A stretch of 64,000 nt of DNA from Lingula anatina (lineage: Eukaryota > Animalia > Brachiopoda): the NCBI GenBank assembly GCA_051362555.1, contig CM120640.1:13516001-13580000 (forward strand). Direction: 5' to 3'. The translations under genes and the position numbers were made by a program. Under the pieces are notes generated by a model. It was not told the DNA's origin, did no database searches, and saw only the letters and a program-made list of their open reading frames with translations. Positions 2,278 to 64,000 of the stretch are shown here, piece after piece. How positions within the stretch are numbered: position 1 is the first letter of the stretch; every line of letters starts with the position of its first letter.

Positions 2278-3665
2278 ATTATAATAATAATAATATAGTA
2301 ATAGTTTATTAGGTAAAATCGCAACCCTAACGTTGAAGATGTAGACAGTATGTTTAAAAGAAAATTGAAAATAAACTTTAAATCATAAACCAATAAATTA
2401 TTCCTAAAATACTACAGATTAAAAAGGCGTTCATGAATTACTACAAATTAAAAGGCAATAATTAACAAAGGAATTTTTTTAATCACTTTTGATTGTAAAA
2501 ATTTGGTGTTATTTCGTGTTTCTTTCGAGCAATAAATGACTCAATTTTTCACAATTTTGTAGTTTTGTATAAAACCTCTGATACAGCAAATGTCTACGTT
2601 TGTCTATAGTGTCGATGTTACAAACTTTTTCGGCATCGTCATAACTGAGACCAGGGCAAATAATCCTCAAGGCTCTCTTTTGAACTGACTCTAGACATTC
2701 AGATTGCTCAGCAGTCAGACCTTGTCCCCACACTAGACACGCAAATTCTAAAACTGATCTTAGTACAGACTGGTAGATAGGCCTAGTTAATAAATCTTGT
2801 ATGTCCAGTTTTGCCCTCTTTAGCTGTCTGAGATAAAAGAGCTTTAGGCTTCGTTCACATGGAATATCTATTTTCTATTCGCGGTATCTTATGATCACGG
2901 TCTGGGCCCTGAATATCCCGCCGCGTAATTACTGGCAGCACGAGCCAGTTACTTATAGTAACTTATAGTAACTGGCTCGCGCTGCCAGTAATTACGCCGC
3001 GGGATATTCAGGGCACAGACCGTGATCACAAGATATAGGCCCTACCGCGAATAGAAAATAGAATTTAGAAAATAGACATTCCATGTGAATGAAGCCTAAA
3101 ACATGCCTTAGCATACATGGTTTGGATGTGTTCAGCCCACTTAAGGTCTGGGGTTAAAATAACACCAAGTACGCCTATCTTAAACTCTTTGACCTTTTCC
3201 ACACATTCACCATCTATTTCCAATGTTGGTATTGTAAGATTACAGTTCTTGGTAAAAATTTATGTCCATCCACTTTGTCTTCCTGGCATCAAGTGTCATC
3301 TTGTTTTGCTTCACCCAGTCAGCCAATTGGTAGGTGCGGTGTTTCGCCGAATTTGCAAATTTAAAATGTAGATAGGCCCTACATGTACTCCGTATCATGA
3401 CTCTATCATCAACAAACTTAATGTCTGAGCAACAAGTTTTCAGGTCATTGATCATTGCAAGGAAAAGAATGGAGTCTATTTTAAAGCCCTGAGGCACCCC
3501 TCCCACTAGCTGAACCCAATCAGATTTAAAGCTACTGCATTTTACTCGTTGCAACCGTTCGCAAAGAAAGGAATAAATCCAACGTCTTAGAAAGTCTGGT
3601 AGGCCTATCCCTTGAATTTCAATTTTTTCCATTAAGATACTGTAGTCAATCCTGTCAAATCCTCC
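2278..3665 (-). mobile_element. 5'-truncated, decayed non-LTR retrotransposon (CR1/L2-group-like reverse transcriptase C-terminal half plus 3' tail)
   Basis: Minus-strand fragments carry LINE RT motifs: WIYSFLCERLQRVK, GVPQG, FLAMINDL, KFVDD (YADD-type), and LESVQKRALRII in ORF 2509-2733. The reading frame is broken by frameshifts. The 3' end has AATAAA (plus-strand tttatt near 2305) followed by an (ATT)n tail at about 2278-2295. It is interrupted by the MITE at 2847-3096. Confidence 0.85.
2847..3096. mobile_element. PIF/Harbinger-like palindromic MITE (internally deleted), inserted in the LINE
   Basis: Ends GGCTTCGTTCACATGGAA...TTCCATGTGAATGAAGCC; nearly the whole element folds back. Flanks are TTA and TAA (TWA target). 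Same family as 27357-28174. Confidence 0.85.
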
Positions 3666-9400: not shown

Positions 9401-12400
9401 TTCACTGGTGTTTATATATTCTCAGTAACAAAATGCATAAACAGTACATACAAAACCTTCACATATAACACTATTCAGGTTCAGGCAGGCTATATGTAGG
9501 CCATGGAAGTATTAGGCACTATTAATAATTACAAGTGTATTGAATTTTATAATCTCTTTGTGTAAATCTAAAAAATAATGAATCCAGGACACTAAATTTG
9601 CTACATGTTGTCCATGCAGATATTTTTCACAAGTTATGAAATCTAAACAGTTCAAAGATTTAGTGAGTAGGCTTAACATGGGCATTGCACATGTATAGTC
9701 ATTTTGCATAGTACAATACCTGGTCAGACACATCCTGGAGGCTTATTTGAATCATTCTCTGGAATTTGACTGATATTGGAAGAAAAGTCTGGAGGAAAGT
9801 GTGCAGCTTTACGGTTATACGCATAGTCTGTGTATTGATTGCTGCACTCAGGCCGAAGTAAAGTGAAAAAGCATTGCTATGCACTAGTGTATTGTGTGCT
9901 GGGTAAACATGCTGAGCTGGTTCATATGTAGGTCATGCGTAAAATACAGTGGTCCTTTCCCTTGACCTACTTACCTGCATGTGAATTCTTACACCTGTAT
10001 TAGGTTGACCTGTGTAATGTGCAGTTGATGAAAATTTTATAAATCTTTGTAAGCTGTTTTTTTTTATGGTTCAGGGTGATCATATGTAAAAAATATTGAT
10101 TGCTATATTCAAAATAAAGTGTATTTTACCTCCCCGGATAATATAAATGATAAATGATAATTGTAACAGACTAAAATGCTGTAGTGGAGGATGTACAGGC
10201 ACTCATAAATTTAGATTTAATAGTGCTGTATTAGTTTCACCTACAGTTAAACACATTATTTATAGTCTGACATCGATCTTGTTGGAAAATACATAGAGCT
10301 ATGAAGTATATATCAATCCTTAATTTGCAAATAAGTAGGCATTCAAGCACAGGTACACAGTATAGCTATAGTTATGGTATTTTCTGTTTATTGTTATTGA
10401 AATATTGAGAATTCCCTGAGCAAAAATATAGTCATCCCTGTGACATCTGTATTTATCACTCTTTTGCATCTGAGTGACAGACAGCTGCAGGTTGACACCT
10501 TTTCCTCACATTGTTGACATCGTTTTACTACAATATGACTTAGTTCTTGCCCTGTTACATCATATATATTTTTACATAGACTGTCATATATATATATATA
10601 TATTTTTTTTTTAAATATATTAAATATCAATATTTCGTCCAAATGAGCAATTGGCCTACTTTTGTGTTGCAGTGCTGCAAAGGTTTTACAATAGGGACAA
10701 TTATGTGTGATTTTCTGAGACCCATTACCTTATGTCTGACATTTCAGCTTGTAATTAGCTTATGTATGACTGACTTTAATTCATTTTCAAATACTTGAAT
10801 CCCTGTGATTTTGCAGTGCATTAAGATGCTACCCTTTCTTGGCAGGTTTATGTACTGGAAGGAAAAGATGCTGGAAAAATTGGCATTGTAAATAGTGTGT
10901 GGCCAGAACGCAACTGGGTCTTTGTGGAAGGTCTCAACTGTGTAAGTATATATACATATACATACATATATGTATGTTACCAGGGACTTTTCAATTTGAA
11001 AAAAAAAAGTGAATTCACTGTCTTATGAAGATTTTTATGATTGATAACCATCGTGTACACATGTATATGCCATGTTTAATCGTTTGAACCCCGTTAGTTG
11101 TACATGTATCAGATTAAATTTATTTATTGACAGATTTTGAAATGGTGCTTACAATCAAACAGTTATTAAGATTAATTTACTGAAATGATTCCTAGCATTA
11201 TGTTACAAATAAAGCTCTATTTAAAACTATCCAAAAGTCTGTAATAGATCATCAGACAGTCGTACAACAATGTGTCAGTTTGGTCCAGCCCCCAGTTAAA
11301 TGAGCAGGTGCTCGACAAAAATGCTGTCGGAGTATTGGGGTGTCACCTTGAGCTTAAGAGAGAACTTGAAATAAACCTGAACATTATATCATTGCTCTGC
11401 TGTAACTTGAAACAGTAGAGGTGTGCTGTAATGTAGAGGTTTGTTTTTTAAGTAATCTCTGAAGCTTAGGGTGCTCTTAGACCATGTTCCGCTGTGCCAT
11501 CTGCTGTACATAAACATTTCATGCTTACACACTAAAAATAGGTACTTCGCTGGTAATTTTGCTGTCAGCGACTCTTCAGTGAACACCTCCCACCGAATGG
11601 TGTCCACTTGCAAATAGAGGTTCAGAAAGCAGTAAAATGGATGTGACACTTCTTTGACACTGTCATGAGTAAATGGATCATTTGTGCATGATGGCCTAGC
11701 ACAGGTATTCACTGCAGCCAAGATTAGCAGGACCAAAGATGGGCCTCTACTCTCTTATTATATAGATACTTCTGCCCTTTGACAGGCATACTACCTTTTT
11801 ATTTTACAGAAATTTGTGGAAAACCAGTTGTCGGATGACGCTTCTGATCCACCTGAACTCACTCGTGAAGAGCAGCCACTGTTGGTTACAGAACATGTGA
11901 AACTTGTTGACCCCTCAGACATGCAAGTGTTGACAGCCCAATTTCTAATTTATCTTCGTTTTATTTTTAATGAGTCTTTGACCTTTCTGACCTTTGTAAA
12001 CAATGGTAGTAGATCAATGACAGGTCCCACTATTTTTACATAAAGGAGCAGAAAATTTAGACAAAGAATCAGTTTTAATATAATTTTATTGATAGACTTA
12101 TTTTAGATTTTTTATAAGCATAGATTAATCTTTTTAGCCTCCCAAGTATCAGTTTGTAAAATGTTTTTTTTTTCTTTTAAAAAAATGAATGTGTATGTAA
12201 GAATAGTTTTATTTATTTATTTGGTGAAAGGAAACATATCTTGTCATAATACATGCCATGTTATTTGCATAATCTATCACTCCAGGCAGCCGACAGACTT
12301 TGAATGGCGCTATGATGAGGAAGGCAATGAGGTCAGGGTGTCCAGCAGGTCAGGGAGGGTAATACCACTACCATCAGGAGCTCAGCAATTGGAAGACTTC

Positions 12401-13144
12401 GTTATACCCAGTCAGTATGCTGGTAAGTATGCAGTACATTACCATTGCAGTGTTTTAGAGACCATTCCCAGACCCTATCGTACTAACTTTGGATCAAACA
12501 ATCTCCAAGGGGATTCTCGCTTAATTGCAATTTATTTGAGCAGCTTAGATGTTTGTCACGCCTACTGAAGCTGATAAGAGGTAATTAACAATCGTTTAGC
12601 AGCTTTAGTAGGCGTCCCAGACATCTGAGCCATCTCCACTTAAGCTGGAGATGGACCGATCCTGTCAGATCGATGGGAACTCAGTCTTACTCTCTTAGAA
12701 AGGTGTTAGAAAAATTATTTATTAATATGTACATTATAAACAAATTGGTATGTGCCCATCTTCAAATTATTAAGTATATTATGTAAATTCAGACGAGTCC
12801 TAAGCAGGCATTTTAACACCCATATGCTACAACTTATATTGCATCAGCCACAGTCAAAACCGATCTGTATATCATCTATAGACATTTGATTGGTTGTGAA
12901 CATTTTACATAAAATTAGTGTTAAATGTAGTATGGGGGGGGGGGGGGGGGGTATTAATAGTGTGTAAAGAAAAATCAACTTATTTACTTCTTTTTCAATT
13001 TTAGAATCACCTGACAAAGATACAAAGAATTCTGATTTGATGAAAATAACTTATAAACCATCACTTAAATATTTTGAAGAAGAACTCATGGAAAACATGG
13101 GTATAGAAGAGAAGAGAAAGAGAGCAAAAACATACTGGTATTAA
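6406..13144 (+). CDS. MRPL24: Mitochondrial ribosomal protein uL24m (39S L24), 5 coding exons
   Basis: Exons 6406-6669, 10846-10941, 11810-11922, 12286-12422, 13005-13144 splice in frame. Diagnostic segments: [23 protein letters not shown] (KOW), [50 protein letters not shown], and C-terminus [15 protein letters not shown]. Confidence 0.93.
7743..8777 (-). CDS. ADK: Adenosine kinase (PfkB/ribokinase family), 344-aa uninterrupted ORF nested antisense in an MRPL24 intron
   Basis: From ATG 8777: [56 protein letters not shown], and the PfkB anion-hole motif [16 protein letters not shown]. The provided ORF start at 9017 is upstream intronic read-through. Confidence 0.95.
   Translation of the reverse strand: MAADVPEGVLLGLGNPLLDMTVTADVEFLKKYDLEANNAIIAEEKHEGMFRELTEKYKPTYMPGGATQNSIRVAQWLLGKSNATTFMGCVGQDDLAEILRNKAAEVGVNVHYQVNKDYPTGVCASIITGENRSLVSSLGAANYLNVDFLDDPETWALVEKAQFYYIGGFVFPVCTEAIMKIAKHAAEKKKTLVMNLSAGFLCRYFADPDIDIMPYIDILIGNENEAERFTSRAGIETDDLKEMASKTVDLPKKNKDRKRIVLFTQGRDPMVAAAEGEVKEYPVTPVDPSIIKDTNGCGDAFMGGFLSQVVQGRPIEDCIRCGQYAAKTVIQHWGCNYPDTPDFK
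9975..9980 (-). CDS. ADK: Candidate upstream coding exon end (ATG CAG) of a long ADK isoform
   Basis: Minus strand ATGCAG|GTAAGTAG is a consensus donor in phase 0. It matches the phase-0 acceptor TTTCCCAG| at 8819, which adds [14 protein letters not shown] in frame. Confidence 0.5.
12456..12697. repeat. Degenerate fold-back (MITE-like) element in an MRPL24 intron
   Basis: gcttagatgtttgtcacgcctactgaagctgataa (about 12543) is the reverse complement, with mismatches, of ttagcagctttagtaggcgtcccagacatctgagc (about 12596-12630). The outer arms are weak and the boundaries are approximate. Confidence 0.45.
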
Positions 13145-14686: not shown

Positions 14687-17600
14687 TTATGCTTCATCAT
14701 AGATCGGTTCATCAAAGTTTTCATCGAAGTCCTCATCTGGTTCATCTTTGTAATAATCTCCTTCAAGCAGCTTCTTTTTAAACCTTGGTGGTAGATCATG
14801 GTAGAAAAAGGTGCCTGGAAATGTAAGCTTTTAGGTTTTCATTGGCTGAAATTAGTATAGCTTACAGGCTGGGATTGACCAGACTGCATAACAGTATATG
14901 GTTGTTACGTTTTGTTTAATCCAAAGCATTTTTTTCAAGTAACACAGTAAGCATTGAACCTTTACATTGAACTATTTAATTTTCCTGGAAATTTTGACAC
15001 TCCCATTATCACAAATGACAAATGTAATTCATATGTAATCCTGTTTTTGAGTTTTAATTTTGTTATTTTAAAGCAAGCCTCATCAGTGGAGATGAGTAAT
15101 AATCATTGTTAAAATCAGAAATTACGAGCTTTAATATTACTTTATCAATAGTAATTTTCTGGATTGAATGGTTTTGAATAGGGTGTATCTTGGTGACTAA
15201 GGGAAAATTAATTTCCAGATAAATTCAGTTTTTGGTTTAATAAAATCTAAGGTGAAATACATGCTTTTGAAGATTTACAAAATCCACAGATTTAAATAAT
15301 TGTGCTTGACCCTTGAAAATGTGTAGTTACTTTTGATTCCTTTAGGAAGAAACTCCTCTGCATTCATCACACACCCCCATTTCTGGTACTGCCGTAGGAG
15401 TTTATCCCATACTTTATCACATTTCAGCAACTTTTGGTTCCCTGAAACAAGTCAACATAATACAAATGAAACCACACTTTTAGTAGAAAAGGAAAAAGAA
15501 AAAAAAAGCAAATTTCATCAGTTCTACTTCAAAATCCAGTAGCTATACACATATAATTAAATCAGCCTTAGTACAAACCCTTAATTTCATAATCCCTAAT
15601 AACATAACATACTTCCGTAAGGCTTATATAAGTTCATATTTTACCTATGATAATCAGGCATTTTCTGGCTCTTGTTAGAGCTACATTTATCTGGTGAGCA
15701 TCCACTATAAATCCCAAATTCCGTTTAAGCCAGCCAATATTTGACTTGTCAATTATCTCATATTCTGGGATTGAGCACACAGTGGTGAATATCACAATGT
15801 CCCACTCTCCTCCTGTAAAAAGGCATTCTTCCAATGAGGGTTTCATTACAAAAAAGAATGTCAGTAAATGCTTCAAATTCCTCGGTGTTACTGTATTGTT
15901 ATATCAGTATTAGAAAATGAACAGCAAATTCTTAAAATAAAACAGAATCAAAATACTAATGCAATTTTAAAAAATGCAACAATAATTTTTTAAAAGATGA
16001 TACTTTTCTTAATGTGTCAAGCCAATGAACAGACAGGACCTTGACTAGCAACCACTGTGCTAACGTTAGCGTTTCTCCCTTCCAGTTTGCTCCGGATAGC
16101 ATTGACTTGTGCACGATACTGACTAAGAATCATGATGGTTGAGGAAGGGACATTCAGGCCAGTTTTGCTGGTGAGAATGTCAAATATTCTAACCTGATAA
16201 AAGAGAAAATATTGATTAGAATACTATTCACAAAAATGATAACTACCGCAAATGAGAAGAATTGGCCAAGTTATTTTAGTAATTAATTGATATATAGTAA
16301 TTTCTCTCCTCCTACATAGGAAAATATTCAAAAAGCATCACAGTTGTGATTAAAAGCATCAATTATACTGCATCTGATGTTCATATGAGAAATGAATGTA
16401 ATGAATACAAGTTCTATTTCATTTATGGACTTACCACTTCTTCAACTTCCTTCATATTCTTTTTTGACATTTCGCTCCCTTCATTGGTTGAAATAACTAA
16501 ACTTTCCTCCTCTCCTTCCAAATGGAGAAATTTGTATCTTCTTGTCTCCAACCAAAATCGTTTATCTTTAACACCACGAGAAAGGAAGTCGTTTGCACTC
16601 ATGACACATCTTTCCTTCTCATAAATCTGAAGAATCCTCCTCCATGTTTTGTCACACTTCAGCAAAGTCTTGTTTCCTGTCAAGTAGTAGAAAACAGTTC
16701 AGTGTGACACTAAAATCAAGCCAGCTAAACCTGACATATGAAGGAACAATCTTGAACAGCACTAGCGTAAATATGGAAGACTGACAAAATATAAAATACA
16801 GCTACATACACATTTTTGGCTCTGATGCCAAGCATACAGGGCCAAAATTATTGAAAGAGTAACAAACCAAGAAAAATAATCCACAATGGCTGTTTTAATT
16901 CAGATATGAACTGTATCTTAAGTTAGTCTTATGAAACTTTTATTCAGTTTGAGAAAAAATAGCACAAGTTTTTTGTGCGTGTGTGTGTGTTTTGTTTATA
17001 CCCCCCGTCAAACTTATTCGGAATCAGCAGGAATGAAGAAGAATGAGCCTGAATGAAGAATTTTAAAATTCGCACCACATTTGGGGAAAATTTCAAATTG
17101 ACCTTAATTATTATAAGAGTACCGTTAGAATACTCAGAATGCGCTTGAATTCGCCTGGAATAATGAGTGCACTTTCGACTGCATTAGCTCTCAAAAGCAG
17201 TTGGAATGTAGTTGGAAAACTAGGAATATTTATAATGCTGTAAGAAGGCAGTAAGAATATTTAGAATATACTTTGAACGGCGCCCTTGTGTAGTTCGATT
17301 GCTGGCAACATTAATATTTCAGCTCATCCGAACATTCGAAACATTCTGGCGGGATATAAAATCCCTATCACACTAGAGGCAGAATGATTAAGAATGGCAT
17401 CTGAAATACAATTCTTTGTGCATTCCAGGATATTAGAAGAGTATTCTAAAAAAATTATAAAAATTCTGAGTGCATTCCAAATATTTTTACTCATTCTTGT
17501 GGCCGGCTCGAATGTTTTTGTCATGTCGAAAACTTTCGAAATGCATTCCAAGAGGAAATTTATCGCAATATCCCTACAGTATTCCAACTACATTCGAGAC

Positions 17601-20600
17601 GCAATTGAAAGGTAAAATACCTGGAATGTGCAAGAATCATTCCAGGTGGGTTCGATGTGCATTCTCAGTATTCCAGAGGCATTCTTACAAAGCCGTAATA
17701 TTTTATGATAATTTGAAATTCCCTCCAGAATATGGTACAAATTTTTTAATTTAGTAATTCTGGCTTGATTCCTACTTATTTCGAATAAGTTTGACGGGGG
17801 CTTTAAGTCACTTGTCAGTTCGAATATTCCTCTAATGTGATCAGAATGTTTTGAATGCTGTCGAAATGCCGTGAGAATATTTAGAATGCAGTCATAGTGC
17901 AGTTAGAATACTGTTCAAATGCCATTCAATAAATTTCCACTTGGAATGCACTTCGACAAAAACATTCGGGATGCCACAAGAATGGGTAAAAATATTTAGA
18001 ATGCACTCGGAATTTTTAGAATGCTCTTTGAATATCCAGGAGCGCACAAAGAATTGTCATTCCGCCTCTAGTGTGATGGGGGTATTAGAGTGCACAAAAT
18101 AAGCTTTTTTTGTCAATCTTGATGCAACATGACATAATCATGTCATCAATTTTTTATCATATACTATTATTATTGTGAATTCAATAATACAATAAGGCTG
18201 TTTTTTTTTCATATTCCAGCTTTATATGGTCATAGGAATTGTTTTTGTAAGGTTAAAAAAAGTACTCTGTTTTTCCTTCTCTGGTGTTAAAAAGGCAACC
18301 AATTTAAAGACACTGGTACATATAACTGCTAAATATCCAGACACAGTGTCTGATCACAAAATAATCTAAGCACGGTAATGACTTAATCTGAATGAATTTA
18401 TCAAAATAATTATACCTAAAACTATTTTAAATGTGTTCTAAACAGGCTATGTGTCAACAAAGAAAAAAATTGAAGTACGTAATTTCTTTTATGTGCATGT
18501 AGTTGCTTAGCACTTGTAACTGTCACACTTTAACCATGCATCCAGCCTTCAAATTTTTATCAAATGAAGCACAGTTTCAAAATCAACAACCTATCATAAT
18601 TATCTTCTTCCTTGCTCTTCTATATGCCACATCACATATTTGCTCCTTCACAACATGAGGAAGTCCAAGCTGTTTTTTTCGCCAGTCTGCATCTAACCGA
18701 AACTGATCAATCTCATCTTCAGGAAGAGAGCACACAGCTGAGAAGATGACAATGTCCCACTTCATATGCAGCATTTCAGGTTCTTAAAATATGAAAAAAA
18801 TCAACATAAAATGGTTAACCTCAGAGTCAGTCAAAAGGAGACATAGTATTATGGTTCCAAACCATTTGTCATTCCAAAGCATTGCTCATTTTGTACATAC
18901 TAAAAAATAGCTTTTACATAATAATGATTCATTATTCACTGGTACATGTACTTTTATACCACCAGTTTGGTAGAAAATTGAGCAATCATCACAGAACTAC
19001 TACATGCTTTAACTTCAAAACATTCCAAAAACCTCAATTTACTTTGAATATCAGCAACAAGTTTGACATTTTCAGGATTCTCTTTCTTCTGATTGTCAGC
19101 AACATGTATGACGTTTTCATTTTCAAGTTTCCTAATCATCTCCTGAATGGCCATGGCCTGAGCAGGGTACTGGGTCAGGATCATGATGTTTGTTGGAGGT
19201 ATTTTTAATCCATCTCTGCTGGTGAGAATATCATATATCCACCCCTTGAAGTGTACAACATTTTGTATCAATTACTGTTGTAAATGCAGTGGACTATAGA
19301 AAGAATGGTTGCTAGTTTACTGTTATTATTTCAACAGCAGATAAAAAGTTATCTGGCTAACATTCTATCCATTAGATTGAGCTTACCTTGGTAATGAATT
19401 AGGTGCAAAAACTGTTAATGCCCATCACAAATGTATTTTTCTACATAATTACTGCATGAACAGAAGTTTATAATGATTAAATACTCACAACTTCTTGTAC
19501 TTCATCCATATTCTGCTTAGATGGAATATTGGTCTTTGGCATGGTGACAATCTCTTGTTTTCCTTCAATATGAAGGAATTTATATCCCTTGGTTTGATAC
19601 CACAGACCTTTAGCTAAGTTGGAATAATCTTTCAAGGCTGACTCTTCTGTGAAACTAAGCGCCTTCCCATCCTTCAGTTCTCCGTCATAAAATTCCCATG
19701 ATGGAAAATGACAGATATCTGGGTGCTGAAGGTATACAATAAGATCACATAAAATCTTTCAGTAAGAGTGGACCTTATTGTATTCATTTAATTTCTTCCT
19801 AGAATAGAGGGTACTGGAGGAGACAGGATTGTGCTGGAAGTGACCTGTAGTGGTTTAAGACGTGAAGCCGACTAGTCATCTAAAAACTTGTCAAAATCTT
19901 TAAAAAAGCACAGCAATCGTGGTTCGGTGCGCTTCAGTTGTCAGTTGCAAACTACTTCCTGGTTTTCACAAGGTCCTTCAAGGACTCTAAAACATCGTTA
20001 TAATTGCGGCACATACCATAAATCACCCAAAAATGATTAGATATGGGCATATCAGATTACATAAATGCAAAAATTCCACATGACAAAGATTCACAACCTC
20101 TTGGGAATTCTTTTCCCATGACACTCTTTATTGCGCTGTTGGTCGATGCAGCATATCTTTCAAAACAAAATAACTATAAATTAAGCATGATTTTGCACCT
20201 TCAAGTATTGTAACATGTTTTCATATCATGTACCTATTATTTCATCTAGTATTTTCTGCCCAAAATACCAAGAGAAAAAATGTTATCTCACTATGTTATT
20301 GGCAAAACTGCTTTTTTCTCTGAGCCCACATCTTCACTCCCGTTCACCTCCAGCTAAAAATGACCACTCAGCGTCTTACACCACTTGACGTCACATGATG
20401 TCACACTTCCGGCACAATCCTGTCTCCTCTGGTACTCTCTACTGAGACTGGTATTAGTGTAGCATTTGATAGCAAAGTGTCATCAATAATGTACAGTACT
20501 TGATGCATGTTTTTAAATTTTTTTTGGCAATATTTCTATAATCAAGAAATAAACAGAACATACAACCAGTATGTGGTTCATTTCTGACTATCTGTCACAT

Positions 20601-21120: not shown

Positions 21121-24100
21121 ATCAACTCGGGAGTATTCATTGGGACATGCTTAAATTCAACTAAAAACCTACCATTCTGTACTGAAAATCAAGCATAACT
21201 TTGGCGGGTCCATTGTCTGCAAAAGATGCATAGCGTTCAAACAGGGACTTTGCAAGGCCAAATTCACTAGCAGTGTTGTTCTTGATGATAGGCCTCAGTT
21301 GTTTGTGGTCACCAATCAGAATAACCTGCTTGGCTTTTGATGAGACAATAGGTATCAGGCTCTCTGCTTCTACGCACATTCCACTTTCATCTACAATACA
21401 CTGCTCAAAGCTGCTGACCCCTGTTATTTTAGGAGTTCCACTTGTGGTGCATGTGCATAGAATGACATCATGAGAACGGATCTCTTCTTCTTCTGCCTTA
21501 GCAACCAGCTTTCTGTATTTATCTAAATCTTCATCTGAAACATCATACTTAACTGGGTCCTCAAAGAACTTTTTGAAGTCTGCATCGAACTTGAGTAGCC
21601 GGGTGGCATTAGGCTTTCCTTTCTTCCTGATGATGTGATGAAGAGCCACATCTTTGTGGGCAGATGTAGAAACTACCTCTTTTTCTGTCCACGATAAAGA
21701 CTGTTTTGGCACAGGGTAGTCATGAAGAACTATGCTGTCACCATACACTCTGAGTATTCTGGGGCATATAGAGGGCCTCTTGTCTTTGGCGTTGACAGAT
21801 TTTGGATCAAATTTTCTCTTCAGAAAATCTAGAAAATGATTGAACTTGAATTAATTATGATGTATGAATTTAGCATCAAGTCCTAAATTGTATTTCCTAG
21901 GATAAAAAAATGTTTAAACCAAAATATTATGCATCTATTACCTGTGACCACATCCACTGATTTATTAGATGGTCCACAATACAGAATTTGTTTAGGAGAT
22001 TTTCTTCCAAATTTCTCCCTGTTCCACTGAACAAAAAGGTACACGAGGCGAATACCAGTCAAAGACTTCCCAGTGCCTGAAGCAGTAAGAATTCTTGAAT
22101 CAGTATCATTTACCCAAAGCAAACTAATACCTCAGTTCTGTATCTTATTTCATACCTTTAATTTCATGTCTTTTAATTTTCAGCATACTTTTATCAGTAA
22201 AAGAGTTTATTTTTTATCTTACAACATAACAAAAAGATAGTGTTATGAAGGCTGAGATGAGACTATATAAATGTCACATTTATCCAATTTTGTGTCTAAA
22301 AGTCTCACCAGGTGGACCTTGAATCAAGGCAAATGGCTTAAGTAGAGCCTCTTTGCAAGCATCCTTTTGTCTCGGATTTGCTTTTGGAAGATAGTTTTCC
22401 AGGTAAGGCGCAATTCTCTGGTCCCTGTTCTTCATTGTGTTGATCGCACGTCGTTTAACCTCCACTCCATACTTTTGTTTCATTTTCTCTATTCTCTCAT
22501 CTTCTGCTTCTTTCCATGCAAGACGCTCTTCTTCTGCTTCAGGATCTATTTCATGCTTTAGAAAAAAGCTTTCAACTTCTTCTTTACCTTTTAAAAGTAA
22601 AAAAATGTATGCCATTAATAAAATATACAACTATTCCAGTTTCAAAAATTGATATTCATGAATTAACAGAATTATTAAAATAATAAAATGAAAAAAGGAG
22701 AATGAAGACAAAAAGAGACCCATCCCAGAAAACATTCAAATGAAAAAAATTGTTTGTCATTACAAGCAATAGAAAAGGCAGATATTAGCATCATATAACA
22801 TCATGCAATACGTAGGTTGAATGAGCAGGTGACGTGGTAAATATCACCTTGTCCAAGTTGGTATTGCTCCTATTTTAGATAGGATGTTTCTGTAAATTAA
22901 TTCATGCTGTATATTAAAAAAAAAGATTGTTCTTCAATTTCAATCAATTACCATAGTGAAGTGAAAATGTACACAATTTAAACTTTTAAGGATACTGAGT
23001 AGGTCATCATGCATCATATAAAAAATGCATGTGTATTTTCTTGAGTACATACTTCTGCCTTCTAAATTCCCCATCAGGTCAGTATTTCCCAGTGCTATTT
23101 TTTGTGGCAGCTGTCCATGTTGTGTATCTGAAAGTTCCCTCACTGCCCACTCCATTCGTCTGGTACAACATAAAAACAAAGAGCAACATATCACATACAT
23201 CAAGTTCAGATCTGTAATATATTACTTTTTAATTTCAACTGCCATTTTGTTATTTTCCCTCTATGACATCTTCTTTACACAAAGGATTAAATTAGACTTA
23301 ATTTTTGGATTCACTACTTAAGCTAATTGAACACAGGTTTCATAGGTAATGAGCATCTTATTATTTTTCTATGTGAAGATTTCAGTCTACAACTTGATAA
23401 AACATACCTATCTGGCAAAGTTTTTGAGATGATCTCCACAATGCATGGCAGAGCAGTGTTTTTGTCTTGACTTCTCTCAAATATCACAGCAGGCACATCA
23501 TTCCCTTTTAACTTGAAATATACAGTCAAGGCTCCTTTCTGTTCAACATGTAATACCAAACCATGAGCAATCCACATTGCTGCTTTGGACTTCACACTGG
23601 CTAGAACAAACTTGGCACTGTCACTCTCAATGGGATACTCTGCAGGTAGCTGTGGATACATAATACACAGATAGTCAAAGTATTGCTTGGTGTCCCGCAA
23701 CTTACTCTCAAGAAAATCCTCTGATGAATCATCTTGAAGGTTGAGACGTATGTGCCTGTCTTCACAGAAAGTGTGCCCCATCTTGAATTTTCCAAAATAG
23801 ATATTTTCTCTCTTAATCCATTGCACTCTAACATTCTGGATACTGACTGATTGATCATTTGTAACAGCACTTACAGCTGCTTCAAGCTGAAGTAGAGAGA
23901 GCAGAGTATCTTGATAGGCTTTCACATTTTTGTATGTTTCCTCCAGATGACGAGCAGTTGACAGTTTGCAGAATGCATCAACAGGATCTGCACGATGTTG
24001 CATACAAAGGTGAACATGCTCAGACAGACTAAAAGCTGCCAAGTGGGGTTGAAGAATGCCACGTTTCAGTTTTGAGCTAAGCAAAACTTGGACTACACTT

Positions 24101-27100
24101 CCTGGGTTCAGGTCAATTTGAAATTTGATTTGTTGTGAAATGACTTTGTTTTCCTTTCCATGAAACATTTCTGCACTTGCATTGTCCACATAATGAGCTA
24201 GACTTCCTCTGTGGTTTTCTTTGAAAGATCTTACATTTTTGTCACAGTTTTTCACAAAACTGATCAACATTTTGTCTTCTCTTTTGGTAGCTTTAAGAAT
24301 CTGGTCCCACAAAGAAATTGGCACATTAAAAATGAATTGATTTGGATTGAAGTGAAGAACCTTATCCTTATCAAACCGCTTCTTGGAAGATGCCTTCACC
24401 TTTGAATCTATGTCAAATATTTTCTTGTTCCAGATCAAAGAAACTTCCTTGGAAGTGCACATATTGTCCTCAACAACTTGATGAGGGACACTTGGTCTTT
24501 CACATACCCCAAGGTGGTTATATGGTAGCTGCATTAAACTTGGTGACACAAATTGCAGCCCGGGAGTTGTGAGTTGTATGCTTCTACCATCAATTCTTGT
24601 CACGACTGGGAGGATGGACATAAATTTGTTTTCTTTCAGCATCAAAGAAAATTTAAGCATTTTGCAGCTTCTATCAAATTGCTTTGCTTTAAGAGCACTG
24701 CTATTTGCTCTATCACATATTTCTTGTATCTCCTCTTGAGTGTATGGTGGCTTTTCCTGATCCTCAAGCATTGCAACTACCAAACGATGGACAACAATAT
24801 CAATGTATCGTCGGATAGGAGATGTGAACCTTGTGTACTCTGAAAATTCTAAATCAAAATGTGCCATTTCATCATCAGGTATACTTCCAGAGCAAACCAT
24901 TTTGGCTTTTCTTTGAATTGCTATCCAAGCTGTAAATGTGCTGCACTGCAGAGGATGAAGCTCCTCATAGGCAAAAAGGCGTCTTAGAGTTTCAAAATGA
25001 CAATCTGGGTTCACTGCTTTGAGATGAGCTTCTTCCCAGGTGCTCTGACGAATTGGCATATAGCGTAGATTTTTAGGGTCTTCAAAGTCAGGATATACTC
25101 TTCTAAGCCATTGTCCTGGTTTACTGGAATGCATGGCAATCTCTGCAAATGAATCTTTCCACATTTCCAACTGTGAAGAGTTGGGTGAGGGCTGAACTCT
25201 CAAGGGAACATGCATTCGGTACTTTCTGAGCAATTCCTTTGCAACTGTTTTATTAGTTAGTAACATGAATTCTTCGACAACACTTTCTGCCTTGCTACCC
25301 AGCAGAACATCCCCAAGTCTCTTTGCTGAAAGTTTTTTGGCAACTTTGTACAGCAGTCTCACAGCTACTGCAATTTTTTTATCCTCTTCTGGGACATCTG
25401 AAGAACTGATGTACGCATTTGCTTCTTCATATGTTAGCTGTCTTTGTGATCGGATTGTTGTTCTCCTTATTTCTGTAGGCCTGTCGGCATACAGTTCACC
25501 ACTTTTTCTGTCTGCATAAAAGAAAACAGATATAACAGGCCTCACACGGCCTGCAATCAGGCTGCAAGCATGAGCACTCAGCTTCTCTGGTAACATTGGC
25601 ACAGGTGGATCTTCAATGGATGGGTAGTATGTTTCTCCCCTCTTTTCAGCTTCTGTGTCAATTGGATTTCTTTCTTGTAAATTGTCCTTATTCTTCTTCA
25701 CTTTCAAAGATACATCAGCAATGTGAACACCTATTCTTATGTCTTTTCCTCCCAAATATTCTACACTCAATGCATCGTCAAGATCTTTGGCTCTGGGAGG
25801 ATCTATAGTGAAGGTAGCACCTCCATCCTCGTCCTCCTCAAGCTGACTGAAGATCTCTTCATTGGACATTGCTGTGATGGTATCATTCACTTGTGCAGGG
25901 AATTTTTCACTTAAGTTGTACTGTATCTTTAAGATATCCAATCTGCTTTCCCAGTCTTCTGACACAGCAAGCTTCTTAACAACAACACCAAGTGGATAGT
26001 AGTGATATCGATCCCATTGCAGGTAGCGAACAACAAACACTGTATGCTCACGACTATGAACATTCAACAGTTCAGTTTCTTTATGAGTTGGCTGTCCTGT
26101 GCTGTCAAGGCTATAAATAGCAACTTCATTTTCATTTTCAGCATCTTTGTTGTAAATGTGAATCTTTGGAAAAGTGTTGCATAATGGCAGCATTAGGTTA
26201 GCCCTAAAATGGTCTGCAATACAAGCAAATCTTGCATACTTCCTCACTTGAGTTTGCCTCCAAACACCTATGACTTTGCCAATGTACACATCAGCACCCT
26301 CTGGTGGATTCAGTAGTTCAACAACAACTTCAGATTCATTGAAAGCCATACCACACTTGTTTCTGCCAAACAACTCTATCCTCTGAATAGTCTCTGTTTG
26401 ATCAATAGGTACAGCATAGGCCTTTTGTGGTGTTTCAAGGTACAAAATGCACTGCTTAAACTGCTCTGGATATTCTTGCAATTTGTTTCTCAGGTCTTCT
26501 TTTGGGAGGTCTTCATAAAATGGTTCTTTGTCTCCTATGTACTTATCAGCTAGATAATTCTGATAAGTTTCATCTAGAAAATCCTCATCATCTATGATTT
26601 CATTAACCAAACCACTTTCACAATACAGATTTCTACCCTTTTTCCAGTCATTTGGATTGTCAAAGATATTGGCATTACCTGAAGTTGGCTTTTCATCATC
26701 TCGTTTAAAATCAAGATGTGGTGTTTTCAATTTACTTTTTGTCCTCTGTAGATTGACCTTCATGTTTTTTACAACCTTTTCAGCCAAGGAATCTGGCTCT
26801 GTGCCAATTTCCCCAAAGTCACCTTCACTGTCACTTAAAACACCTTTATCCGCAGAGATTCCATCATGAGATAGCTTTTTACGTTTGCCTTTTATCACTG
26901 GTGGCTTATACTTTGCACATGGTTGGGTAAACATTTGCAAGTTGTCAATTTTCTCAAAACATAGATCTTCTGGGGAAAGGGTTCCTTTCTCATCACAAAT
27001 TCTAAAATAGTGTTTCCAAACATCATTCTGGTTTGCTTTTGACAAAAGAAATGGATCTCCAAACACAACAATGTGTAAGCGTGCACAGGCAAACACCGAG

Positions 27101-30100
27101 TTCAAAGTTTTTCTTTCTTCCAAACTTCCAAAGTCTACTGGACCTGTCACATAGCGTGGGGTTCTCACAGTACTCAGCAGAGTACTTTCAAATTGTGTGC
27201 CTGCACATGAAATAAACATTTTTTATATTAAATTCATATCTTTATTTTGGCTATTCAAATTAAAATCTGACCAAATTCAAAATCAACACATATGACCTTT
27301 TGTCAGACTTCTGACTGTAGTAACTTTCTTATATATTGGGAAATATTTTACATTTAGGCTTCATTCACATGGAAAGTCTATTTTCTAAATTCTATTTTCT
27401 ATTCACGGTATGACTTGTGATCACGGTCTGTGCCCTGAATATCCCACGGCGTAATTACTGGCAGGGCGAGCCAGTTACTTATACGAAGCTGTAATTAATT
27501 CTCCGCTGTGCTCCGAGGAGATTCTGATACCTTGACATATGCGCAGTAGGAAGTGATCATGATCCGATGGCAAGTGATGCGGCAACGGAGGATGAGATTT
27601 TATAGAATGCGAGCACAGCCGAGAATTAATTACAGCTTTGTATAAGTCCCTGTGGTGTTTCCAGACCTCTTTTGTAGTAAAAGCTTAGTGCACTGGGACT
27701 GCCAGGATATTCATTCTCTACTTCTAGCTTGCCATCATAAAAAGCATTTGACAGAAAATGTATGATGTCAAAAGATTTTCCTGAGAGCCTTTTCAGAGGG
27801 AACAGGTACATCTGGTTTTCATTTTCCTGCAGCATCTTCAGCCTGTTTGTCAGAAAGTGACTAAGCTCATTTTGTGATCTTGATCTAGGTGTCACGTGTA
27901 CACTAGGGGACACACACATCTCGGAGGAGATTCTGATACCTTGACACATGCGCAGTAGGAAGTGATCATGATCCGATGGCAAGCGATGCGGCAACGGAGG
28001 ATGAGATTTTATAGAATGCGAGCACAGCTGAGAATTAATTACAGCTTTGTATAAGTAACTGGCTCGCGCTGCCAGTAATTACGCTGCAGGATATTCAGGG
28101 CACAGACCGTGATCATAAGATACCGCAAATAGAAAATAGATTTTAAAAAATAGACTTTCCATGTGAATGAAGCCTTAATGTTAGATATTAATGACAAGGG
28201 TAAAATGTGACAATCTTTTTGATTTAGAAAAGAAAAAACACACCACTTTCTGTGTTGCACTTTTTGAGCTTTGCAAAATGCAATGAACAAGAGACCCAGC
28301 TTTGCTTACTAGTGGTCACATTTTTAAAACTCTTTGTAGCACATAATAAAAATGGTGGTGATTATTAAGCATTATGTAATATTGCATCAAAATTGACAAA
28401 AAAAAAACTATTTTGGGCACTGCTACAATATTGACCACTAAGGGAAAACCATGTTACTTATGATTCTCAAACTTACAGAAAAGATTTTTATGTCTGAAAT
28501 ACAGCTTGAGTTGGAAAACCATTGTTTATTACCAAGAGCACACTTTTTGCACATGTGCAGATGTTTGACACCTGTACTGGTGATGGCTACATGTATATGT
28601 GTCTGTCCATAAAAACTGTTAACCTGAGGTATATACCTGACAAAAACTGACAAAAATTTTAAGAAAATGGGGCAGAAGTTAAGTTTGCCCATACAGTAGA
28701 TAGAGATTTCAACCAAAAAAATCTATTAAATAAATGTATAAAAAACATCATATTGATCAAGAAAAACTGCACACCTTGTCTTGTGTATTAGCTGCTGATT
28801 AAAAAAACAAGAAATAAATGAATGAATGTATCAAACACACCTGGAACTGATTCTGGAGACAAAATGGTCACTTTTTCTCTTATTGGCTTCGGGAGACCAT
28901 CAAAGTATTTCTCAAGAAGGTTTACCTGAAATGAAATGAAATGGTAAAAATTTATTACTGCCATATCCTTTATATACAAAAGGTGTCACAGTTAAGGATA
29001 CATAAAAAGAGTAATGTACACATAAAAGGAGTTATGTATTTTGGATAAATATTAATGTAAGTTATCAAAAATGACTATGCTGACACATGTACTTCAAGTA
29101 AAAACAATTATTAAATTGACAGATAGACAGTGATGATGAATTTATGACATGCACAGCTTTGGGGATTCTTTACTTTTTTTGCAACATTACATGTGAATAT
29201 ACCTGCGCCAGAAAAGGAGAAATAACAGCTATGTCTTCACTGAAAGCGGCTATTTCCTGAGCAACTTCAAACACCTCTTTTGCCTCGGCTTCATTGAAAT
29301 AAGACAGTCCCTGCGGTGTTTCCAGACCTCTTTTGTAGTAAAAGCTTAGTGCACTGGGACTGCCAGGATATTCATTCTCTACTTCTAGCTTGCCATCATA
29401 AAAAGCATTTGACAGAAAATGTATGATGTCAAAAGATTTTCCTGAGAGCCTTTTCAGAGGGAACAGGTACATCTGGTTTTCATTTTCCTGCAGCATCTTC
29501 AGCCGGTCTGTCAGGAAGTGACTAAGCTCATTTTGTGATGTTGATCTAGGTGTCACGTGTACACTAGGGGACACACACATCATGGGGTCAACAGTCAAAA
29601 CAACAATTGTCTGCGTACATTCGGCATACATCAGTGGGATGATACTCTCAGTCTCATTTGCTTTGTCCATGCCATCAATTATCACATGGGTAAAAGCAGG
29701 GAATTTGTTGACATCTTTCCTCAACAAGAGAGAGGCTGTCAGTGTTGTAACAATAATTCGGTGTTCATCTACTTCTTTTTGAGTTGGACTGGGATGCTGA
29801 CTGCAGTACTGCACTACTTCAGGCTGTAGGCAGACAGGGGAGGACAGACCTAGTATCCTTAGAGGCCTACTTGTATAGGGAAGCATTCCACCACTAATCC
29901 TTCTGTCCAAATCCATGACATATGCGTCCACATCACTATAAGAAATATTGAAGTTATTAAGATCATTAGGCCAGTTGGGTAATATGTAACTAATTATAAG
30001 TGATAAAATTATCATTTTTACGTTACTTATAATCATTATTATCATTATTAATCTTTTGTGTTTGTTCTTATAATTTTTATAGTGCATTATTAATTACAGT

Positions 30101-33100
30101 ATAGCTCAGTGTGAACAATACAAGTGCACAGGGAATCATGCCTCTCTTAGTAATCTAAGAAAGAAATAAGTAGAATTCACCCTCTGGTATACATCTATTA
30201 CGAAATCACTGCAGGTGCAAATATCTATAATAATTACATTTCAAAGGCTGAGAGTACCTTGACTTTTTACAGCATATGAGAACCTTTCTCTTCATATCTT
30301 TGGCCAGGAGAGCTATGGCCTGCTGTATGGTAAAGCTCTTTCCTGATCCAGAAGGTCCAGTCACAACAAAAGGTGATACGTGTTGGTTCCCTGGAGCCTG
30401 ACACAATATGTGTTCAATACATTTCCTTTTCTCCTCTGACAGCTCATTTGGCTTGCATCTAAAATTTAAAAAAATCCCTGCAGCATTTTTCAAATGAAGA
30501 TAAATAAAATTATAACATTTATTTAAATAAAAAAGGAACACATTATGAAGTCTTTTGAGAAGCATATATTGCACTGAATAGAGACAAAGTATTTTGGTAC
30601 TAACACTGTAAAAGCAATTGAATAGTGCTGTTATATGCATTCATTCTAGTATAATCTTCCATAGTTTATATATAATAAGAATTTTCAACCCCATACATGA
30701 TATGAATAAATCAGTTGGATACCATGGATGTACGTGCAATGCTGGAAATATATATGATTATGAAGATGATGACCTTCTTCCAGGCTTGCAGCAGCCTTTT
30801 TATATTCAGGTGAGAATTACAGTCAGAATGGGACAACTGAAGCTGATTCCACTGACTGCATTTTAGGGAGAATTAACCACAGAATTAAACCAACCCAGCT
30901 AGTATGTGTGAATCTGAATGTGCCCTCGAAGATTATAGGTGAAAACTCATTTCAGGCTACATGTTTGAGTTATAAATGATCATCACAGATATATGTTACA
31001 AAAACTTAACAGTGAAAACATTACAGAATAGTGTAGAGTTTTCATCATTATAAGTATACCTTAACTTTCCTGGAAGGACAGCAGCCATGGGAACATTCCA
31101 ATCAGGAAACAGCAAACAGTTCTGAGTCCTTTCAAGTGACTGGTGCATCAAATCAAAGAGAGTGGTGTTGAAAACAAACTGCATCCTCAAAGTGGCAACA
31201 TCTCCTTCAAGTTTCAACCTTGTGGCACATTTCTGAGACATCCTTATATACAGAGCTTTTCTTGGAGTTCCTGTTGCAAGATAGTCAGCATAATTTAGCA
31301 CTGTGGCTTTACATATATGCCCAGTGTTGATTTCTTTATCAGGCTGAAGGTAGACTTTGCTGACAGCTGTGAGAAGGAGTTGGCAAAGGGCTGGTTCCAA
31401 ATCGCAGAGGTCTTGCTTTACCTCTCCAAAAATACAACCATCAGTCTCATGTTTGCTCTCATGAATCTTCACAGGAAGTTGTTTGTGAAGCTTGAGTGAT
31501 AAGATAGTGGCTTTCCTAAAATTAAATGTTAGTGCAAATATATTTAAGCCAGTTCACTACACAAATGAAGAATGATAATTACAATGTCATGTATATAATA
31601 TGGAACAAAGTGATTTTTTCACTCAAAGTCGCAGAGTTTAAGGAGTGTAAAGACAATTTCTAAGACCCCAGATGGAACAATTTTAGCTTTAATCTGAAAA
31701 ACACATACCATTATGTTTAAAAAAATCTAACAAATTGACCAATGACAGTTATCAACATTATTTTTGAAATCTTTTTCAATAGTAAAAATCATCAAATACC
31801 CATGAACAATGTCCATCTCTTTTCTTTTTTGCTCCTCTAAATATGTGTGCATCATGCTCTTATAGGAGAAAAAGTTGATTTCACCACTGTGACTATAACA
31901 CAGAGGCCAATCCACAATGGGGTACTTAGCAGCCAATTCTTCAAATACCGAAGATTCTGTTTCATCGCTTCCATCCTCAGCATCACAATTCATGCAAGTT
32001 GGTTGCCTTAGCCTTAGGCTACAAGTAGAACCAGCTTGTGAGACATCCTCTGTGTTAAATTTACATGCATCTGTCTCAGCATCCACTTTCAGAACCATCC
32101 GCAGCACAGGTCGGTCACCAAAATCCAGGATGAGCCACTGATCAAAGGCGCCTTGCTGTCCATGACTAGTAAATTCTACACCGAATACATATTTGCTGCC
32201 ACTGTCAGAGTTGAACTGAATTACCTGTGCATTTTCACTTTTGTTGATGAAGTGAAAGTGACTTCTGAATCTGTCCCTCAGAAGATACACTTTCTGCAAT
32301 CTTTTGGTCTGAGAAAAAAAAAGGTAAATTGATTGATGAGAATATATTTGGTGAAATATGATCAGAATCATAGAAAAGCAGCAATATAACAGTGTTGAAT
32401 TTATAATAATATCAGATCATGTCACTGATGCTTACTTTATCCTTTATTTTGACCTGAAAATTCCACTGAAGTGTTCTCCCCTCATGAACCTGATGCTGCT
32501 GATGGAGTTCCATTGGTCCAGTTGTACTACCAAGGCTGGGTTTAACCTCTACCTTTACACCCGGGACACAAGTATCAGTGACCTTAGGAGGAAAAATTAT
32601 AATTCTACAAATAAAAATTTTGTGTAATCATTTTTTCATGTTAGTATTCAATGTTCTAGACCATATCTTATTTTTATTACCATCTACCATATCAAATACT
32701 TCAGATAATCATAAACCCTTCATTCATTCTGACATCACTTTTAGATGTTGGAATATGATTTTATGACTTGAACGTTCTGTACATATATCTTTATACTGAC
32801 CAACTCTTTTAACTCGTTTGGTTTTGTCTGACAGTGAAGTATATTTTTATACAGTTCATAAAAATCCCTGTGCTCTTCTTTCTTAAGACTATGAAATGCT
32901 TTGTTTTCTCTCTTGCGTTCCTCCCACTCTTTCAATTCCTCTCTACTATGGGCATGTTGGCAAAAATTGTACTGTGACACAACATTGGAGTACTGGCAAG
33001 ATTTATTACTTATGTGCCTGAAACAAAAGGGCCATAAAAGCAAATTTATAATCTTATAAGCTGAAGCACATAGAACTTCAACCTCAATTCACATGTCATT

Positions 33101-39100: not shown

Positions 39101-40012
39101 CGGCTAGGCAACATAATTACCAATTAGAGAAATGGTAATGCACCAATTGCATTGTATCATCATTAATATATCATATTGTACAAGGCCATGACAATCTATG
39201 TACCAGTACAGAAATAAATTGAAAATTAAATTTATTAAAATATATAATAGCACCAGTGTTCGATGTATTAATAAAGTAATTGATTCATAAGCAGTGTTTT
39301 TCTTGCCATTGGTTTACATATAAATAGGTAAAAATATATTTGGCATTTCATTTAGCAATGTTAGTATGATACACAGGAACATGCACATATATACATAATA
39401 ATATCAGACATACAGTAGAAACGCATACCTTTGAAGAGATCTTCATAAGCTGACAGTGCCACACTCTGAAATTTGCAAAATGCACATGTAAATCTATTCC
39501 ACAGCAGAAAGTGTGTGTAGGTCAAAGGACAAATTAAAGGTCATATTTAGATCCATGATCTATTTATATGACCCTCCAAGCATACTAGTATTATAATAAT
39601 CTCACAATGCTGATTTTTTAACTCTTCTTTGTAAATTTAAAGTAAAAAAACAGGTTTTGGAAGTTGTGGGTCTTTAATGATTAAGGTTGTGGTGATAATC
39701 TGGGATGGCAACAGCTTTGTCAGCAACACCAGCAGCTACAAGTACCATCAAAATATTATATAGAGCCTCAAACAGCTTAAAAAGACTTACCAAGTCTGAA
39801 TCGATTTCTGCCTGATTTTTGTAACGATTTGCTCGCATTTTATGTAACTCTGCCAACTTTTGGAAAAAGCTCAATGTTTCCCGAGACTGAATGGACAGTT
39901 TCTCCTTGTTGATTATTTGATTGGCATATTTGATGCCTTCTGAAAGCTGTCGGAGAGATTGCCTCTTACCATCTTCCAAGTACCTAAGTAGATTTCTCTC
40001 ATGTTTTTCCAT
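14687..40012 (-). CDS. HELZ2: HELZ2-like helicase with zinc finger domains (TPR-like, CCCH/C2H2 fingers, degenerate SF1 helicase 1, RNB exoribonuclease, SF1 helicase 2 with duplicated C-terminal RecA domain)
   Basis: Phase-consistent exons (minus): 40012-39791, 39465-39429, 38727-38621 (uncertain), 37645-37439, 36269-36200, 36028-35877, 34855-34273, 33962-33710, 33017-32801, 32582-32436, 32308-31800, 31515-31060, 30458-30258, 29935-29203, 28925-28841, 27200-23408, 23159-23053, 22587-22309, 22076-21942, 21828-21173, 19725-19489, 19244-19043, 18782-18591, 16676-16435, 16193-16040, 15812-15645, 15441-15331, 14814-14687. Motifs: GPSGSGKS, TFTIDPPRAKDLDDALS, YTRFTSPIRRYIDIVVHR, GPPGTGKS, IVDESG, GDHKQL, QYRMHP, QGGEWD, INVALTRAR. 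Confidence 0.9.
16999..18084. mobile_element. PIF/Harbinger-like non-autonomous element rich in GAAT/ATTC motifs (outer copy)
   Basis: Ends TACCCCCCGTCAAAC...GTGTGATGGGGGTA, with TTA on both flanks. Confidence 0.7.
17360..17803. mobile_element. Same-family element nested in inverted orientation inside 16999-18084
   Basis: 17361-17570 is the reverse complement of about 17930-18084, and 17700-17803 is the reverse complement of about 17000-17110. TAA on both flanks. Confidence 0.7.
19805..20441. mobile_element. MITE-like element with ~55-bp imperfect terminal inverted repeats
   Basis: TAGAGGGTACTGGAGGAGACAGGATTGTGCTGGAAGTG ... CACTTCCGGCACAATCCTGTCTCCTCTGGTACTCTCTA. No TSD other than a possible TA; superfamily not assigned. 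Confidence 0.75.
23408..27200 (-). CDS. HELZ2: Giant (3.8 kb) HELZ2 exon containing the RNB (RNase II/R family) domain
   Basis: Lies inside ORF 23323-27219. Acceptor TGCAG| at 27201 and donor AG|GTATGT at 23408. RNB motifs DPPRAKDLDDA, VEEFMLLTN, HFDL and FTSPIRRY. Confidence 0.92.
27357..28174. mobile_element. PIF/Harbinger-like MITE carrying a captured copy of a HELZ2 exon fragment (Pack-TIR-like)
   Basis: ~155-bp TIRs GGCTTCATTCACATGG...CCATGTGAATGAAGCC and a perfect TTA TSD. Internal 27645-27920 matches 29306-29581 (5 mismatches in 276 bp) and is flanked by a 137-bp direct duplication of element sequence (27511-27647 / 27920-28056). Confidence 0.92.
28343..28700. repeat. Dispersed repeat fragment shared with ~42810-43000
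   Basis: cattatgtaatattgcatcaaaattgacaaaa and downstream sequence recur at about 42845. Boundaries are approximate and the family is unknown. Confidence 0.5.
34874..35182. mobile_element. Fold-back MITE (GGGGCC...GGCTCC ends, 3-bp ATT flanks, Harbinger-like)
   Basis: Long inverted arms: gtgctagctgg...catgaaaggaagaccgcttaatcctgtaatggtc versus gaccattacaggattaagcggtcttcctttcatg...ccagctagcac. ATT on both sides. Confidence 0.8.
38080..38212. repeat. Short dispersed element built from direct and inverted gaaggttcattggtccgaa units
   Basis: Units gaaggttcattggtc(c/t)gaa and their complement ggaccaatgaaccttcgga. Second copy at 40160-40298 and a remnant near 865-895. Confidence 0.65.
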
Positions 40013-40159
40013 CCTCTGTATTTTGCTATATCTTTACTGTCCCTTCTTTGAAAAAGTGTAATTGTTAGATACTTGCATGGTACCTGAAATGAAATAATGA
40101 AAGAGTTTGATTTTAAACAGATACTAACCCCTTTGGGCTGAAAAAGCTTGCATCTTTAG

Positions 40160-63988: not shown

Positions 63989-64000
63989 CTGAAGGTAAGT

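Follow-up and report, generated by a model that had tools for sequence, protein, structure and literature searches.

The stretch of DNA studied here (the window) is 64,000 nucleotides (nt) of the brachiopod Lingula anatina, positions 13,516,001 to 13,580,000 of contig CM120640.1 in assembly GCA_051362555.1. Positions below are those of the window. Its minus strand carries a HELZ2-like gene, in which an RNB exoribonuclease domain is followed by a helicase called helicase 2. Superfamily 1 (SF1) helicases have one RecA1 and one RecA2 domain. In this helicase 2 the RecA2 core is present twice, as two colinear units in one reading frame. This intragenic tandem duplication is real, old, expressed and unusual, and it has been seen in one gene so far. 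The upstream unit, copy 1 (16558-19605), is degenerate, and the downstream unit, copy 2 (15331-16557), is near-canonical. Somewhat more probably than not, copy 1 is included constitutively as a pseudo-RecA module, with copy 2 completing the ATP site of a motor that would grip RNA weakly.

An earlier note, made from the letters alone, had proposed such a duplication, and it was borne out. The peptides and coordinates quoted there were all found on the minus strand. Copy 1 is 210 amino acids (aa) long and has exon parts 19605-19489, 19244-19043, 18782-18591 and 16676-16558. Copy 2 has exon parts 16557-16435, 16193-16040, 15812-15645 and 15441-15331. The two meet in a junction exon, 16676-16435. 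It begins with the final helices and strand of copy 1 and runs on into the opening of copy 2, which there comprises the first strand, the hairpin and the start of a helix.

In a global alignment of the two copies, 92 of 186 aligned residues are identical (49%). The alignment score is 390, versus -31 +/- 13 (maximum 13) in 500 shuffles. Introns interrupt both copies at three homologous places, as had been claimed, with phases 0, 1 and 1 in each. A profile built from 61 distinct homologous units finds two full units on the spliced model, at 117 bits for copy 1 and 228 bits for copy 2. A Pfam scan for two AAA_12 hits had been suggested as a check. AAA_12 27-94 and 109-141 match exons of copy 1, and 109-144 and 151-191 match exons of copy 2, but three of the seven unit exons scanned are silent, the motif V-VI exon of copy 1 among them.

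What was doubled is the core of RecA2, which is less than the whole RecA2 half first proposed. Alignment of the homologues with UPF1 puts the start of the unit at the Trp that precedes RecA2 strand 1, and its end at the final strand. The helix before it (HPALSAFPSNIFY in UPF1) falls outside the duplicated piece, and this N-terminal helix and its linker are found once, at 19606-19725, by alignment to homologues. A fold prediction for a mussel protein that corresponds roughly to the unit alone (43-row alignment) is confident over residues 31-200, with blocks at 87-98 on the predicted local distance difference test (pLDDT) and a core of about 95. This model matches UPF1, SETX and IGHMBP2. Its linker, residues 11-28, has pLDDT below 50. 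Because only the core is doubled, with the helix and linker single, copy 1 likely forms an insert of 210 aa within the flexible entry linker of RecA2, if copy 2 is the working core. The spacing from QYRM to G.E is 38-66 in 57 of 59 homologues; in this gene, copy 1 has a spacing of 58 and copy 2 one of 268. Long linker values in two homologues, 106 and 130, proved to be pattern errors and no insertions.

The duplication is old, and copy 1 is under purifying selection. The DNA of the copies is only 60% alike (66, 71 and 43% by codon position) and their introns are unrelated, which rules out a recent duplication or mis-assembly. Fourfold sites are identical in 10 of 32 cases. The proportion of differences is 0.74 at synonymous sites (pS) and 0.31 at nonsynonymous sites (pN), and saturation is nearly reached at synonymous sites.

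In a tree of 63 units, the two copies are sisters with support 100/95. The stem has length 0.45 and the branches are 1.4 for copy 1 and 0.27 for copy 2; at about five times copy 2, copy 1 counts as a long branch. That copy 1 derives from another gene is ruled out by this tree together with shared rare states, with some caution called for by that long branch. A codon model gives an omega of 0.12 overall, and about 0.1-0.5 for copy 1 if rates are divided between the copies as the tree indicates. The pairwise model rejects neutrality of copy 1 (twice the log-likelihood difference, 2dL, 17; p about 4e-5), even with copy 2 frozen. Of 57 family-conserved columns, 37 have the same residue in both copies, versus 50 of 127 others (p 0.0015).

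Four of nine RNA runs (X1, X4, X5 and X7) were mapped, with joints listed from 3 reads up. X7 alone covers the unit exons, and in that one run both copies are spliced together into one reading frame. Within copy 1 and into the junction exon, the X7 joints are 19489>19244 (4 reads), 19043>18782 (5) and 18591>16676 (7). Those of copy 2 are 16435>16193 (4 reads), 16040>15812 (5) and 15645>15441 (4), after which 15331>14814 leads to the last exon (4 reads). The upstream RecA1 joints are 22309>22076 (6 reads), 21942>21828 (5) and 23053>22587 (2). The six joints inside the units are similar in count (4-7) to the flanking joints (4-6). In X1, where depth is very low overall, two joints of copy 2 have one read each, and the junction exon is covered.

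These joints bear on what the earlier note had claimed and on what it had thought might overturn it. The junction exon is confirmed from both sides (7 and 4 reads). The units do not belong to separate transcription units, as joints cross the boundary between the copies. That copy 1 is never spliced in and evolves neutrally is contradicted by its joints in X7 and by the rejection of neutrality above. An extra pseudo-RecA module, spliced in and degenerate, is what was found.

Each X7 read departs from the window in several letters, which means that the unit joints also apply to a different individual or population. The same run has an in-frame 3-nt insertion at 19083, within copy 1. Among the 40 listed of 248 variants, none is in copy-1 exons. 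The second exon of copy 1 also contains a 15-aa internal tandem repeat (19043-19125), in which 26 of 33 nt agree. The 1914-nt intron of copy 1 is filled by nested inverted-repeat elements (16996-18087). RNA reads mapping there derive mostly from other genomic copies of these elements.

Of 43 highly conserved columns (>= 90%), copy 1 keeps 25 and copy 2 keeps 37. The conserved columns lost by copy 1 are the G and E of motif V and the Q, N and T of motif VI. Measured as a catalytic RecA2, copy 1 fails in its motifs: the G and E of Q-G-x-E and the N, L and T of N-x-A-L-T-R are changed, and motif V has a 5-aa insertion. The claim that motifs V and VI were lost is right for these residues and goes too far for the Q of motif V and the motif VI Arg, which are kept, as are S-x2-N-x2-E, Y-x2-Q, W and L-G. 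Motif names are those usual for SF1 helicases, in which the motif VI Arg acts as the arginine finger.

Copy 1 keeps 19 of 21 hydrophobic positions in strands and 21 of 29 in helices. Its indels are confined to loops, the hairpin or one helix end. Scored by segment, copy 1 has 31 bits in segment 1, lower than all but one of 61 homologues and without the invariant E, T and G; copy 2 has 70 there, and the homologue median is 83. Segment 2 gives 30 versus 73 bits, segment 3 gives 43 versus 130, and segment 4 is a tie at 66 versus 67. Being ahead in segments 1-3 was counted toward copy 2 as the working core. For copy 1 the prediction is a module that folds yet is catalytically dead.

The RecA1 domain of helicase 2 (21173-23159, from motifs and RNA joints) has exons 23159-23053, 22587-22309, 22076-21942 and 21828-21173. 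It contains Walker A GPPGTGKS, Walker B DE, motif III GDHKQL and QYRM. Copy 2 has motifs V (SQGGE) and VI (NVALTRAR), and RecA1 plus copy 2 possess every ATP-site motif (Walker A, Walker B, III, QYRM, V, VI). Together they retain 105 of 116 highly conserved columns, which is below 50 of 51 homologues.

Copy 2 had been described as the intact copy, and this did not hold. It has Cys in place of the Arg of T-V-R-S. Alignment puts this site at position 779 of yeast Nam7 (full length, 971 aa), equal to human UPF1 R843. Sixty of 61 homologous units have the Arg here, one has Ser and none has Cys; in a second comparison set the Arg occurs in 51 of 51 homologues. Copy 1 has Cys as well; by alignment, the codons are at 18730-18732 (copy 1) and 15775-15777 (copy 2). 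Because Cys is in both copies, the change is older than the duplication and no private variant. The 'VCS' motif of protein P0060 has nothing to do with this site, being part of the RNB domain there.

PMC5789848 equates yeast R779 with human R843, has R843 touching the RNA backbone, and names R843C and yeast R779C as the strongest inhibitors of nonsense-mediated decay. PMC4197951 has R843C losing helicase activity and keeping ATPase, with no detectable RNA binding in cells. As both copies carry this UPF1-crippling change, the helicase 2 motor is likely weakened: it would bind ATP, but grip and unwind RNA poorly.

Four X4 reads match 15778-15813 and then continue into a related HELZ2-like transcript which has Arg (translated by eye). 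That transcript is likely from a paralogue, and possibly from another organism or a very distant allele.

The gene as a whole has the order helicase 1, OB/cold-shock (CSD), RNB, helicase 2. A single open frame of 2133 codons over 13 exons runs from 27200 to a stop in 14814-14687, with GT/AG at every intron. That last coding exon, an acidic tail plus stop, was absent from the earlier note and is placed by its RNA joint and by closure of the frame. The large exon (23408-27200), assigned by Pfam and motif comparison, holds the end of the helicase 1 RecA2, the OB/cold-shock domains and RNB. Its Pfam matches, RNB at 3e-61 and OB_HELZ2 at 3e-24, are both above cut-off. The catalytic aspartate motif of RNB, D-x5-D-x-D-D, is intact and has the same pattern as in homologues. 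AAA_11 and AAA_12 match on either side of RNB, those in helicase 1 below the curated cut-off, and by tblastn the flanking helicase regions are colinear with homologues.

Motif comparison places the helicase 1 exons at 29203-30460, with approximate limits, and Walker A is present. Its Walker B is IIDG and its motif VI, located in the next exon (within 27200-27050), is NSVFACAR, where most homologues checked have DE and N-T-A-x-T/S-R-A; the V-R-T Arg is kept. Going by these motifs, helicase 1 is likely inactive. Upstream, Cys/His-rich frames at 34903-32744 weakly resemble the N-termini of homologues, with no Pfam zinc-finger match there. Further helical open frames at 37400-40033 are maybe tetratricopeptide (TPR)-like first exons of the gene, by comparison with amphioxus homologues and without Pfam support.

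HELZ2 (PRIC285) and the invertebrate HELZ2-like proteins have the same domain order and share OB_HELZ2 and RNB with this gene. PMC10516660 has the helicases of human HELZ2 coupled to RNB and needed for degradation of structured RNA, and bioRxiv 10.1101/2022.03.26.485892 names helicase 2 as most important against LINE-1. This gene differs from its homologues in its two RecA2 cores, in Cys for the conserved Arg in both units, and in the degenerate Walker B and motif VI of helicase 1. The nearest homologous RNB regions have only about 30% identity to it. UPF1/Nam7 has a RecA2 core that can be aligned to the unit over its full span, with the Cys site at yeast 779. UPF1, however, has one RecA2, and its R843C is a laboratory mutant, whereas here the change is natural, precedes the duplication and sits beside an RNB nuclease. 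Compared to an active UPF1-like (SF1B) helicase, helicase 2 departs in the RNA-contacting Arg of V-R-S/A and in having more than one RecA2 per RecA1.

A search with the RNB exon gave 36 long and 305 shorter proteins, with 120 of the shorter listed. Among 197 proteins there were 78 unit-profile matches, 70 of them with a full helicase-2 core, isoforms included; none of the 78 has adjacent double units. The junction exon was compared to 1.84 billion representatives, giving 27 matches, of which 24 aligned in two separate stretches and 1 was a fragment. The top matches of the full-library search, P0037 and P0038, were repeat artefacts and were dropped. A word-seeded search with the same exon, a weak one that covered only proteins of 141-2000 aa, had no match. 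Named matches come from molluscs, an annelid, hemichordates, echinoderms, amphioxus, coral and vertebrates, and the best are named HELZ2-like; no named match is an orthologue closer than about 58%. An extra RecA2 core had no precedent in the literature searched, which was mainly non-subscription papers without supplements (such as the alignments of PMC10516660).

The favoured reading can be put as follows. The RecA2 core of helicase 2 was doubled in tandem long ago, and both copies are spliced in frame. Copy 2 would pair with RecA1 and complete the ATP site, and copy 1 would be a folded, dead module that loops out where a flexible linker leads into RecA2. With Cys common to both copies, ATP would be bound, and RNA gripped and unwound poorly. 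Copy 1 may have been kept as an added RNA- or protein-binding surface for the intact RNB nuclease. Since human HELZ2 needs its helicases for structured RNA, and the motors here appear weak, the protein may be a nuclease whose helicase parts bind more than unwind.

Several points weigh against this. That copy 2 and not copy 1 docks on RecA1 is suggested by sequence only, and the folding of copy 1, the weakened grip and the use of copy 1 as a binding surface are likewise our inferences. Copy 1 has Pro at three places where the homologue model shows helix or strand, and purifying selection on copy 1 could reflect folding alone. RNA support comes down to one run, at 4-7 reads per joint. X4 and X5 have no reads on copy 1, and those of X1, few overall, are absent from the three upstream copy-1 exons. 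The joint from RecA1 to the units, 21173>19725, is not listed in the mapped reads and was derived from GT/AG, phase and homology. No orthologue bearing the duplication is among the 78 unit matches. Finally, the R843C literature is in disagreement: PMC5789848 has its in vitro RNA affinity dropping only slightly, and bioRxiv 10.1101/2022.07.08.499162 terms its ATPase 'low'.

The next best account, though clearly less probable, makes copy 1 a passenger. It would have no job, and be kept in frame and folded only since an unfolded insert upstream of copy 2 harms the protein. The fivefold branch fits this, as do the tolerated internal repeat and 3-nt polymorphism, the mostly hydrophobic-core nature of the retained residues and the missing orthologue. 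Because intron phases match, three in-frame skips are possible, and yet copy 1 survived to near synonymous saturation though any such skip or deletion could remove a unit. It also keeps the polar family-invariant S-x2-N-x2-E, Y-x2-Q and the motif VI Arg.

Alternatively, the two cores could form a docking switch, which is unlikely. RecA1 and the single helix would accept either core, with copy 1 docked being the off state and copy 2 the on state. In alternate frame folding, duplicated segments compete for one shared segment. Engineered switches of this kind are the subject of PMC12344692; the likeness here is in layout only. That layout fits, with one shared segment and two tandem alternatives. 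Copy 1 is in the native position, 58 residues from QYRM as in homologues, with copy 2 at 268; its last segment nearly equals that of copy 2, and its motif VI Arg is kept. However, segments 1-3 of copy 1 are strongly degenerate, the motif V insertion would likely disturb the RecA1 interface, and the proposal comes from sequence layout. A bolder version, about as doubtful, would see here a naturally occurring SF1 helicase with three RecA domains, where one dead and one live RecA2 vie for one RecA1 as an inbuilt on/off switch, on a motor with a natural R843C-type change. Instead of unwinding, the protein would serve as an RNA clamp or sensor that feeds RNB, and it would be a living intermediate of domain permutation by duplication.

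Less likely again is that alternative splicing selects the module, as the earlier note had considered, with a 19489>16193 skip giving a one-unit helicase. That skip is in frame, and of the three in-frame skips only this one preserves motifs V and VI of copy 2. At 19244 the acceptor reads AAG and its pyrimidine tract is weak (11/20), and the depth of X7 leaves room for a minority skip (up to 2 reads versus 4) or for another tissue. The check proposed earlier, 19489>19244 versus 19489>16193, came out as 4 reads for inclusion in X7 and an unlisted skip. No skip joint is listed at >= 3 reads in any of the four runs, one of which covers these exons, at 4-7 reads per joint. Nor would the product be the canonical helicase that was expected, because it retains the degenerate first segment of copy 1 (31 bits) and discards the conserved one of copy 2 (70), the opposite of selection on a skip form. 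The higher score indicates that the start of copy 2 in the junction exon is kept by selection, which agrees with the reads.

An assembly artefact, a pseudogene or two transcription units, hinted at by the unlisted 21173>19725 link and by a helicase 1 that is also degenerate, is hardly credible given DNA only 60% alike with unrelated introns, one 2133-codon frame from 27200 to the stop, and the same joints in reads from a different individual.

If the favoured reading is right, a whole RecA-like domain has long been carried in the RecA2 entry loop, which is useful for helicase evolution and engineering. The gene would also hold, in a natural form kept for a long time, the counterpart of the best-known dominant-negative allele of UPF1, and with it a chance to probe an uncoupled HELZ2 motor in invertebrate RNA defence. 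The limit is that this is one gene in one species, from a family with several paralogues per genome, and the role of the extra module is put forward from inference.

The window contains some further repeats and neighbours. An element bounded by inverted repeats (27342-28189; 170-nt arms, 90-93%) lies in an intron of the HELZ2-like gene, and a related copy is at 2843-3100. At 27645-27920 it holds a 276-nt, 98% identical copy of part of the gene's helicase-1 exon (29306-29581), with a 142-nt direct repeat on its flanks; this is a fragment of the gene that was captured recently. A palindromic element (34870-35186) adjoins the zinc-finger-like exons, and further upstream there is an inverted-repeat cluster (40574-42043). 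On the plus strand, a ribosomal L24-like gene (11783-13141; Pfam 3e-4) is convergent with the HELZ2-like gene. On the minus strand there is a proline-rich gene (50434-57288), whose C-terminal frames resemble what we take to be CHERP, and presumably an EF-hand-like gene (59852-64000). A tandem repeat with a period of about 143 nt is found at 47844-48557, in about five copies that are 90-94% alike.

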